NCBI GenBank assembly: GCA_964016885.1 | Contig: CAXHJY010001583.1 | Coordinates: 1-25,100 of the forward strand | Source of the DNA: Eledone cirrhosa | Taxonomy: Eukaryota | DNA length: 25,100 nucleotides | Reading direction: 5' to 3' | Shown here: in pieces, positions 15,225 through 17,987 of the stretch | Layout of the letters: every line of letters begins with the position of its first letter | How positions within the stretch are numbered: position 1 is the stretch's first letter | Notes under the pieces: model-generated | What the model was told of the DNA's origin: nothing | The model's database searches: none | Seen by the model: the letters and a program-made list of their open reading frames with translations, nothing else | Translations under genes and position numbers: made by a program

Positions 15225-16042
15225 AAATTGGAATAAATGCTCTGAAATAGCGATATATATGTGAATATAGACATAGAATATTCGAAAATATTCTGTATGT
15301 TTATAATAAACATTTTGAAGACCTAATCGCTATAGAATAGAATACGTCACGTATTACAATTAGATTCTCGATAAAAGCAAGGGAAGTAATCTACGCGTTT
15401 CATTCTCGTTAGAAATCATCAGGACTACATATCCAGTGCTTTTATCGAGAATGACACAGCTAGAGACTTATAGAATACTTAGCTGTGTACAGGAACTGGT
15501 TTGAAAGAGCGGTTGCCGGTCCGGCAGAAATTAGAAATTGGAATAAATGCTCTGAAATAGCGATATATATGTGAATATAGACATAGAATATTCGAAAATA
15601 TTCTGTATGTTTATAATAAACATTTTGAAGACCTAATCGCTATAGAATAGAATACGTCACGTATTACAATTAGATTCTCGATAAAAGCAAGGGAAGTAAT
15701 CTACGCGTTTCATTCTCGTTAGAAATCATCAGGACTACATATCCAGTGCTTTTATCGAGAATGACACAGCTAGAGACTTATAGAATACTTAGCTGTGTAC
15801 AGGAACTGGTTTGAAAGAGCGGTTGCCGGTCCGGCAGAAATTAGAAATTGGAATAAATGCTCTGAAATAGCGATATATATGTGAATATAGACATAGAATA
15901 TTCGAAAATATTCTGTATGTTTATAATAAACATTTTGAAGACCTAATCGCTATAGAATAGAATACGTCACGTATTACAATTAGATTCTCGATAAAAGCAA
16001 GGGAAGTAATCTACGCGTTTCATTCTCGTTAGAAATCATCAG
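15225..16042 (-). mobile_element. Retrozyme-like 310-bp tandem array, left arm (~2.6 units)
   Basis: Exact 310-bp period (15231, 15541, 15851). Minus-strand HHRs at 15386-15428 and 15696-15738, plus a truncated one at 16006-16042. Confidence 0.92.
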
Positions 16043-17987
16043 ATACGTGACGTATTCTATTCTATAGCGATTAGGTCTTCAAAATGTTTATTATAAACAT
16101 ACAGAATATTTTCGAATATTCTATGTCTATATTCACATATATATCGCTATTTCAGAGCATTTATTCCAATTTCTAATTTCTGCCGGACCGGCAACCGCTC
16201 TTTCAAACCAGTTCCTGTACACAGCTAAGTATTCTATAAGTCTCTAGCTGTGTCATTCTCGATAAAAGCACTGGATATGTAGTCCTGATGATTTCTAACG
16301 AGAATGAAACGCGTAGATTACTTCCCTTGCTTTTATCGAGAATCTAATTGTAATACGTGACGTATTCTATTCTATAGCGATTAGGTCTTCAAAATGTTTA
16401 TTATAAACATACAGAATATTTTCGAATATTCTATGTCTATATTCACATATATATCGCTATTTCAGAGCATTTATTCCAATTTCTAATTTCTGCCGGACCG
16501 GCAACCGCTCTTTCAAACCAGTTCCTGTACACAGCTAAGTATTCTATAAGTCTCTAGCTGTGTCATTCTCGATAAAAGCACTGGATATGTAGTCCTGATG
16601 ATTTCTAACGAGAATGAAACGCGTAGATTACTTCCCTTGCTTTTATCGAGAATCTAATTGTAATACGTGACGTATTCTATTCTATAGCGATTAGGTCTTC
16701 AAAATGTTTATTATAAACATACAGAATATTTTCGAATATTCTATGTCTATATTCACATATATATCGCTATTTCAGAGCATTTATTCCAATTTCTAATTTC
16801 TGCCGGACCGGCAACCGCTCTTTCAAACCAGTTCCTGTACACAGCTAAGTATTCTATAAGTCTCTAGCTGTGTCATTCTCGATAAAAGCACTGGATATGT
16901 AGTCCTGATGATTTCTAACGAGAATGAAACGCGTAGATTACTTCCCTTGCTTTTATCGAGAATCTAATTGTAATACGTGACGTATTCTATTCTATAGCGA
17001 TTAGGTCTTCAAAATGTTTATTATAAACATACAGAATATTTTCGAATATTCTATGTCTATATTCACATATATATCGCTATTTCAGAGCATTTATTCCAAT
17101 TTCTAATTTCTGCCGGACCGGCAACCGCTCTTTCAAACCAGTTCCTGTACACAGCTAAGTATTCTATAAGTCTCTAGCTGTGTCATTCTCGATAAAAGCA
17201 CTGGATATGTAGTCCTGATGATTTCTAACGAGAATGAAACGCGTAGATTACTTCCCTTGCTTTTATCGAGAATCTAATTGTAATACGTGACGTATTCTAT
17301 TCTATAGCGATTAGGTCTTCAAAATGTTTATTATAAACATACAGAATATTTTCGAATATTCTATGTCTATATTCACATATATATCGCTATTTCAGAGCAT
17401 TTATTCCAATTTCTAATTTCTGCCGGACCGGCAACCGCTCTTTCAAACCAGTTCCTGTACACAGCTAAGTATTCTATAAGTCTCTAGCTGTGTCATTCTC
17501 GATAAAAGCACTGGATATGTAGTCCTGATGATTTCTAACGAGAATGAAACGCGTAGATTACTTCCCTTGCTTTTATCGAGAATCTAATTGTAATACGTGA
17601 CGTATTCTATTCTATAGCGATTAGGTCTTCAAAATGTTTATTATAAACATACAGAATATTTTCGAATATTCTATGTCTATATTCACATATATATCGCTAT
17701 TTCAGAGCATTTATTCCAATTTCTAATTTCTGCCGGACCGGCAACCGCTCTTTCAAACCAGTTCCTGTACACAGCTAAGTATTCTATAAGTCTCTAGCTG
17801 TGTCATTCTCGATAAAAGCACTGGATATGTAGTCCTGATGATTTCTAACGAGAATGAAACGCGTAGATTACTTCCCTTGCTTTTATCGAGAATCTAATTG
17901 TAATACGTGACGTATTCTATTCTATAGCGATTAGGTCTTCAAAATGTTTATTATAAACATACAGAATATTTTCGAATATTCTATGTC

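Follow-up and report, generated by a model that had tools for sequence, protein, structure and literature searches.

Inverted retrozyme arrays of Eledone cirrhosa are probably single insertions made by a Penelope-like enzyme priming one predicted circular RNA at two sites

In the window, a stretch of 25,100 nucleotides from an unplaced 25-kb contig of Eledone cirrhosa, a young 310-nt hammerhead-bearing tandem repeat forms an array of two arms in opposite orientation. The analysis of this array and of its relatives in the genome suggests, with a probability of about 0.7, that such an array is one insertion, in which two back-to-back arms were laid into a TA microsatellite by the enzyme of a Penelope-like element (PLE) priming one predicted circular RNA at two sites. 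Such twin priming is deduced from the head-to-head geometry, the short and long outer ends, the TA flanks, the scattered microhomology junctions and the sequence variants found in both arms. For the wider reading, whereby twin priming on one RNA would be obligatory for PLEs and, on retrozymes, would roll both cDNAs round one closed and sometimes A-to-I-edited circle, the odds appear evenly balanced.

The features of the window are collected in Table 1, with unit positions counted in ribozyme sense from u1 (window 16043) at a period of 310 nt. As originally predicted, the left arm, which is the reverse complement of u243 onward, ends exactly at the first C (C3, in ribozyme sense) of CUGAUGA, and the junction is blunt, with neither microhomology nor insertion and with neither arm continuing across it. 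The right arm had been placed at the edge of a near-palindrome; it does begin near one, although one base inside the true 15-nt inverted repeat (AATACGT-G-ACGTATT, u310-u14) and not at its edge. The six full copies of the right arm and the left arm are all identical. Both 3' ends of the array enter (TA)n in accordance with the family rule of one long and one short end, and their outward orientation, noted earlier together with its likeness to PLE copies B and C, is confirmed, the two PLE copies being likewise joined 5'-to-5'.

Table 1. Features of the 25,100-nt window, in window coordinates
Feature	Position	Strand	Remarks
Left arm	15225..16042	-	818 nt (2.6 units) from unit 243 to 130; 3' end, of the long ('tailed') class, at 15225
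Right arm	16043..17992	+	1950 nt (6.3 units) from unit 1 to 90; 3' end, of the short class, at 17992
Inversion junction	16042..16043	.	blunt, 5'-to-5', single occurrence in the assembly
40-nt 'tail'	15225..15264	-	unit 91-130; left end only
(TA)n target, left	15200..15224	.	
(TA)n target, right	17993..18012	.	
First complete type I hammerhead, right arm	16279..16321	+	unit 237-279; by inspection
Further hammerhead cores	16595, 16905, 17215, 17525, 17835	+	
Further hammerhead cores	15732, 15422	-	
5'-truncated hammerhead at junction	16006..16042	-	stem I missing its 5' strand
16-nt perfect inverted repeat	16255-16270 with 16328-16343 (span 16255..16343)	+	unit 213-228 with 286-301; encloses the hammerhead
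Small hairpin at right-arm start	16043..16055	+	the 15-nt inverted repeat minus one base
PLE copy B	7871..9810	-	5'-truncated; long 3' end, about 43-nt tail
PLE copy C	9811..12235	+	5'-truncated, with a short 3' end; joined bluntly to B at 9810|9811
Second PLE pair, part 1	458-684	-	long end
Second PLE pair, part 2	981-3802	+	short end
PLE reading frame, RT + GIY-YIG-type	816-3272		within the second pair region 458..3802

By inspection, the hammerhead consists of a 6-bp stem I, CUGAUGA, a U.U plus a 4-bp stem II, GAAA and a stem III made of the self-complementary ACGCGU, from which cleavage is predicted to need a dimer. Its cut is predicted after unit 273, between 16315 and 16316, and the C3 start of the left arm lies 31 nt upstream of it. 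The match of the unit to the Rfam model HH9 is weak (E 0.66, below the gathering score), and its predicted circular fold has a z of -4.0. With a G+C of 107/310, this non-coding tandem unit falls within the 150-450 bp and the GC below 50% by which retrozymes are recognized. Judged from its sequence, that is from unit size, GC, a hammerhead in each unit and dispersed multi-copy occurrence, the element is a non-LTR retrozyme, a member of a known group, with predicted cleavage. Among the parsed loci, the three indels that recur through a whole array (L129, L182 and L217; unit 275-277) are all at a distance of 2-3 nt from where cleavage and ligation are predicted, and in another array (L115) the cleavage-site base (unit 273) is altered in all copies. 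These changes could possibly represent a ligation scar; arrays of 309-nt period resulting from a change elsewhere in the unit are also present among the genome pattern matches listed.

A pattern search found 4054 exact ribozyme copies across the genome, most of them belonging to inverted arrays whose gaps vary. Four fixed-gap patterns (283, 310, 182 and 101 matches) picked out the innermost ribozyme of every arm, and all places listed on the two largest contigs, 276 rows, gave 144 stretches that were parsed onto the circular unit. This sample requires an intact 18-nt motif (unit 243-260) and so lacks variant subfamilies as well as one small letter class; arms starting at C3 are not excluded. 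One locus (L097) continues another (L096), hence the 144 loci are 143 arrays; L212-L215 stand outside all counts, and three junction pairs, each found in two arrays, were retained since the left flanks and arm lengths differ. The arms are head-to-head at 113 of the 144 loci and in a single orientation at 31, and the scaled estimate for the whole genome is about 360 inverted arrays. In six contig sets from sequencing runs, only the unit was recovered, closing into a 310-nt loop in five of them, as tandem DNA would also do. The unit was also seen almost unchanged in 20 sequencing runs from 17 studies under 18 organism codes, raw reads under one such code giving none, and this distribution could reflect horizontal spread, diet or contamination.

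The outer ends of the arms fall into two classes, short (unit 90-102) and long (unit 122-135), each located at a few bases matching TA repeats. Every one of the 99 arrays with both ends classable pairs a short with a long end (53 LS and 46 SL), the 30-40-nt tail being at one end only; of the others among the 113, 11 extend at one end beyond the stretch retrieved, and about 3-4 have an atypical or unclassable end. The offset between the short and the long end is about 26-42 nt, and the flanks are TA-rich in 201 of 215 cases (TA/AT steps making up 80% or more across 12 nt); a target-site duplication would be masked within such a repeat. Comparable pairs were found when the window's PLE family was sampled at 20 loci selected for the long tail. 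Complete pairs are present at 15 of them: 14 are long/short and one is an ambiguous long/long (L242). Both PLE pairs of the window are long/short, and a pair in L154 is long/long. The idea that the array arose by the same two-ended integration as PLEs is thus upheld by the short/long pairing in the two kinds of element. The PLE offset, about 43-58 nt, is longer than that of the retrozyme, and at 4/20 loci the PLE long arm is the tail alone, ending at the short start site. No retrozyme long arm among the 99 stops at the short start site, the shortest having 160 nt, and 9/99 end at unit 85-105 vs 6.7 expected. The lengths of the two arms of an array are uncorrelated (rho 0.001), which speaks against lockstep copying of both arms. 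Among the single arms (31 loci among L068-L211), 19 end at the short site, 8 at the long site and 3 run off, an excess hinting that the short site is primed first.

The partner enzyme is likely that of a PLE. The PLE of the window, a candidate of the Neptune/Nematis type, has a like geometry and target and no sequence likeness to the unit. Its reading frame holds an RT followed by a CX2-5CxxC linker and, as read from the translation, a C-terminal GIY-YIG, in keeping with the description in PMC8557442; the Pfam RVT_1 match has an E of 1.6e-4, below the cut-off. The family counts 4150 tail copies with a tandem period of 4147 nt, and comparison of the 310-nt unit with one full period gave no significant similarity (best E 0.23), which rules out the window PLE, the single PLE family compared, as sequence parent of the unit. 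No hybrid insertion of a retrozyme arm with a PLE or sister-family arm was found among the 31 single-orientation loci (60-nt 5' flanks), the flanks of L169 and L193 being unassigned sequence. At one locus (L238, G000:C1:14385761-14395842), full tandem copies of the autonomous PLE at the 4147-nt period are accompanied by an inverted arm, from which this element too may be copied from a circle. A minimal hammerhead-like motif with a CUGACGA core is present in the PLE 3' region at window 11978, 8173 and 3554.

Related repeats were also observed. A sister retrozyme family (L201:2300-3210, L114:4870-5550, L099), about 70-76% identical over the tail side, is head-to-head, ends at the homologous long site and has the ribozyme core CUUGAUAA in place of CUGAUGA in most copies seen, while a third family (L070) retains the canonical core with different paired stems. 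The stretch of unit 95-117 is conserved in all three families and is, from this conservation, a candidate recognition motif. At window 14817-14978, a small fold-back lies between TA repeats with one arm about 68 nt longer; its arm recurs at no fewer than 9 further places among those retrieved, several times directly downstream of a hammerhead-like core resembling that of the 310-nt family, and it is likely a minimal head-to-head insertion of another family. Other hammerhead-like motifs, at window 12553 (-), 14403 (-) and 5281 (+), are part of additional repeated families that recur in many flanks. The window also contains a 2.2-kb (GTT/GGT)-type microsatellite (18384-20600) and a 112-123-nt minisatellite (23521-24016).

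Evidence on the template comes from variants common to both arms. Thirty variant calls, in 24 of the 113 arrays, are fixed in every copy of both arms, and no variant among these 113 arrays is fixed in one arm only, the other calls being 6 partial ones and 110 singletons. Of the 24 fixed sites, 21 are private to one array. A variant carried by every unit requires a single-unit bottleneck, and concerted evolution is disfavoured since it should leave many partial states. A self-cleaved linear monomer is not the template, given that 187 of 198 arms are longer than one unit and reach up to 14 units. The singletons are strand-biased in RNA sense (31 T>C vs 5 A>G, p 1.4e-4) on both genomic orientations, which we take to be expected of RT misincorporation and not of later DNA mutation. 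Conversely, A>G accounts for 9/24 fixed sites vs 5/109 singletons (p 5e-5), with three A>G within 11 nt in 16/16 copies of L209, an excess that presumably resembles A-to-I editing of the template. In L148 a variant is mosaic in one arm (2/6 vs 7/7), and a second template or later exchange does therefore occur.

The same PLE machinery could have used another template, either an uncleaved linear multimer or two RNAs of one source locus (dual priming), an explanation which we regard as unlikely without being negligible. The uncorrelated arm lengths, the absence of long arms stopping at the short site and the L148 mosaic are points against a simple single-circle picture, and the first and last of them fit such a template. 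Insertion of the element PAc in vitro is moreover independent of hammerhead cleavage (PMC11167929), and 1/9 Xenopus retrozyme dimers were cleaved (bioRxiv 10.64898/2026.07.22.740005). Two independent RNA molecules, however, should frequently leave variants in one arm only, against the 0 found vs 30 both-arm calls, and would not require a fixed short/long pair, while a linear multimer should let a source singleton recur in both arms at the same rank, which none of the 6 partial cases clearly does.

For head-to-head PLEs, the published model is self-priming on an antisense template, originally based on the palindromes at inverted PLE junctions (PMC3846280). For the 310-nt retrozyme family, an origin by a single cDNA or antisense template that primes itself or folds back is very unlikely and largely refuted, and so is the later inversion of part of an existing tandem array. 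The 18 junctions located in the 16-nt inverted repeat agree with fold-back, but near-symmetric junctions would be expected from it and were found within 10 nt in 5/113 arrays vs 7.7 expected. Matching outer ends would be expected as well, whereas they differ in 99/99 arrays and most of the loci with a junction in that repeat also have a short and a long end. Later inversion should in addition yield tail-to-tail joints, of which there are none at the 144 loci.

It was also originally predicted that the array inverts at the catalytic core because RT stops at the structured hammerhead, with junctions clustering at the core or at the palindrome. The coordinates of this claim are right and the special position is not, the coincidence with C3 and the palindrome being no more than chance. 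Once the inversion junctions were mapped, the random spread named beforehand as speaking against such stalling was what appeared: the 226 arm starts of the 113 arrays are near-uniform (chi-square p 0.25 in 10 bins and 0.27 in 31), with none at u243 (C3) and one at u1 on the two largest contigs, no enrichment at the palindrome (9 vs 9.5 expected) or at the cleavage site (4 vs 5.1 expected) and no association of junction position with pairing probability (p 0.45). In favour of stalling, CUGAUGA (unit 243-249), one of 7 windows tested, holds 11 starts where 5.1 are expected (p 0.015, without correction) and the Rayleigh test is weakly positive (p 0.037). Counting by microhomology midpoints lowers the former figure to 8, and 11 or more starts are expected in some 7-nt window of the unit (p 0.89). 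Genome-wide, the breaks right at C3 amount to 6 copies, namely the window array, one point variant and four other junctions, of which three show microhomology of 3-4 nt and the fourth an insertion; these four compare with about 2.3 expected (p 0.21). From the anatomy, an RT moving 3' to 5' and reaching C3 would already be past the 3' strand of stem I, stem III and stem II, and in the left arm of the window it would have passed two whole ribozymes before. Stalling is therefore hardly credible and is refuted as a general rule; the junction position says nothing about the ribozyme, and the C3 coincidence is chance.

What the junctions do display is microhomology, at least 2 nt being present at 56 of 95 insertion-free junctions vs 17.3 expected; among the 113, 16 are blunt and 18 have inserted bases. 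The sole hotspot found, 18 junctions at 17 loci genome-wide, joins unit 213 to 286 via the 16-nt inverted repeat (about 4 with the intact motif vs 0.13 expected) and is an annealing/microhomology effect, not stalling at the core. Finally, that the window junction, unique in the assembly and blunt, is a chimeric-read or assembly artefact of the 25-kb contig is just as hard to credit, as its array follows the short/long rule, other arrays also have blunt junctions and inversion is the usual state of the arrays on chromosome-scale contigs.

Under twin priming on one predicted circle, the transcript would first self-cleave at its hammerhead and the monomer circularise. The PLE protein, probably as a dimer, would then nick both strands of (TA)n, and the two 3'-OH ends would anneal by a few TA/AT bases to the same circle, at the short and long sites some 35 nt apart. 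Each end would be extended round the circle with strand displacement, for up to 14 turns, and the cDNA ends would be joined where they stop, mostly via 1-5 nt of complementarity and sometimes bluntly, as in the window, or with a few inserted bases. After joining, each cDNA would template the other strand.

The mechanism of the inverted one-tailed insertion of PLEs and the enzyme moving animal retrozymes are both called open in passages of the papers cited here. A near-identical non-coding family with hundreds of insertions offers a statistical read-out beyond that of single PLE copies, in which starts are fixed and paired, stops are free and the two arms appear to share a template. If the proposed mechanism is true, each inverted array would preserve what happened in vivo to one RNA molecule, including its editing and the enzyme's error spectrum; the PLE inverted repeat, its one-sided tail and the tandem arrays of retrozymes would be explained together, and the antisense self-priming model would be replaced. 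The open-access papers and main preprint texts searched contained no account of inverted retrozyme arrays or of PLE twin priming, and the shared-variant test was not found in them.

Metazoan non-LTR retrozymes are described as tandem 150-450-bp low-GC non-coding units with one type I hammerhead each, and both rolling-circle cDNA synthesis and mobilisation by PLEs were previously proposed for them (PMC7229834, PMC7761336, bioRxiv 10.64898/2026.07.22.740005). The Eledone family resembles them in unit size, GC, hammerhead, stable circular fold and co-occurrence with PLEs, as far as the accessible parts of these texts extend; those parts are without head-to-head arrays, paired short/long ends or junction maps, the word 'inverted' occurring 0 times in that of PMC7229834. 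In its accessible text, the 2026 preprint (bioRxiv 10.64898/2026.07.22.740005) favours local tandem amplification of a pLTR and homology to the pLTR, whereas the Eledone arrays arrive ready-made and the unit has no similarity to the one PLE tested.

Endonuclease-bearing Neptune-type PLEs are known for a one-sided 30-40-bp tail, an inverted truncated copy and TA targets (PMC8557442, PMC3846280), and in vitro a PLE protein, predicted to be dimeric, cuts and extends both strands and has two internal RT start sites matching the tail (PMC11167929). From these accounts, as available in part, the likeness covers the head-to-head 5'-truncated copy, the tail at one end, the (TA)n targets, the two RT starts and the extension of both strands. 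The retrozyme differs in being a non-coding and putatively circular passenger, whose arrays, with their strict short/long pairing and the variants common to both arms, suggest twin priming of a single RNA in place of the published antisense self-priming.

In LINE-1 twin priming and the hypothetical dual priming, as outlined in the accessible part of PMC2837659, two target 3' ends likewise prime on RNA and the cDNAs meet 5'-to-5' with microhomology. Inversion there arises only occasionally; one start is at the poly(A), the other at a variable internal site, and the arms do not overlap. In the retrozyme, by contrast, it is the majority outcome (113/144), both starts are fixed and the arms cover the same sequence many times.
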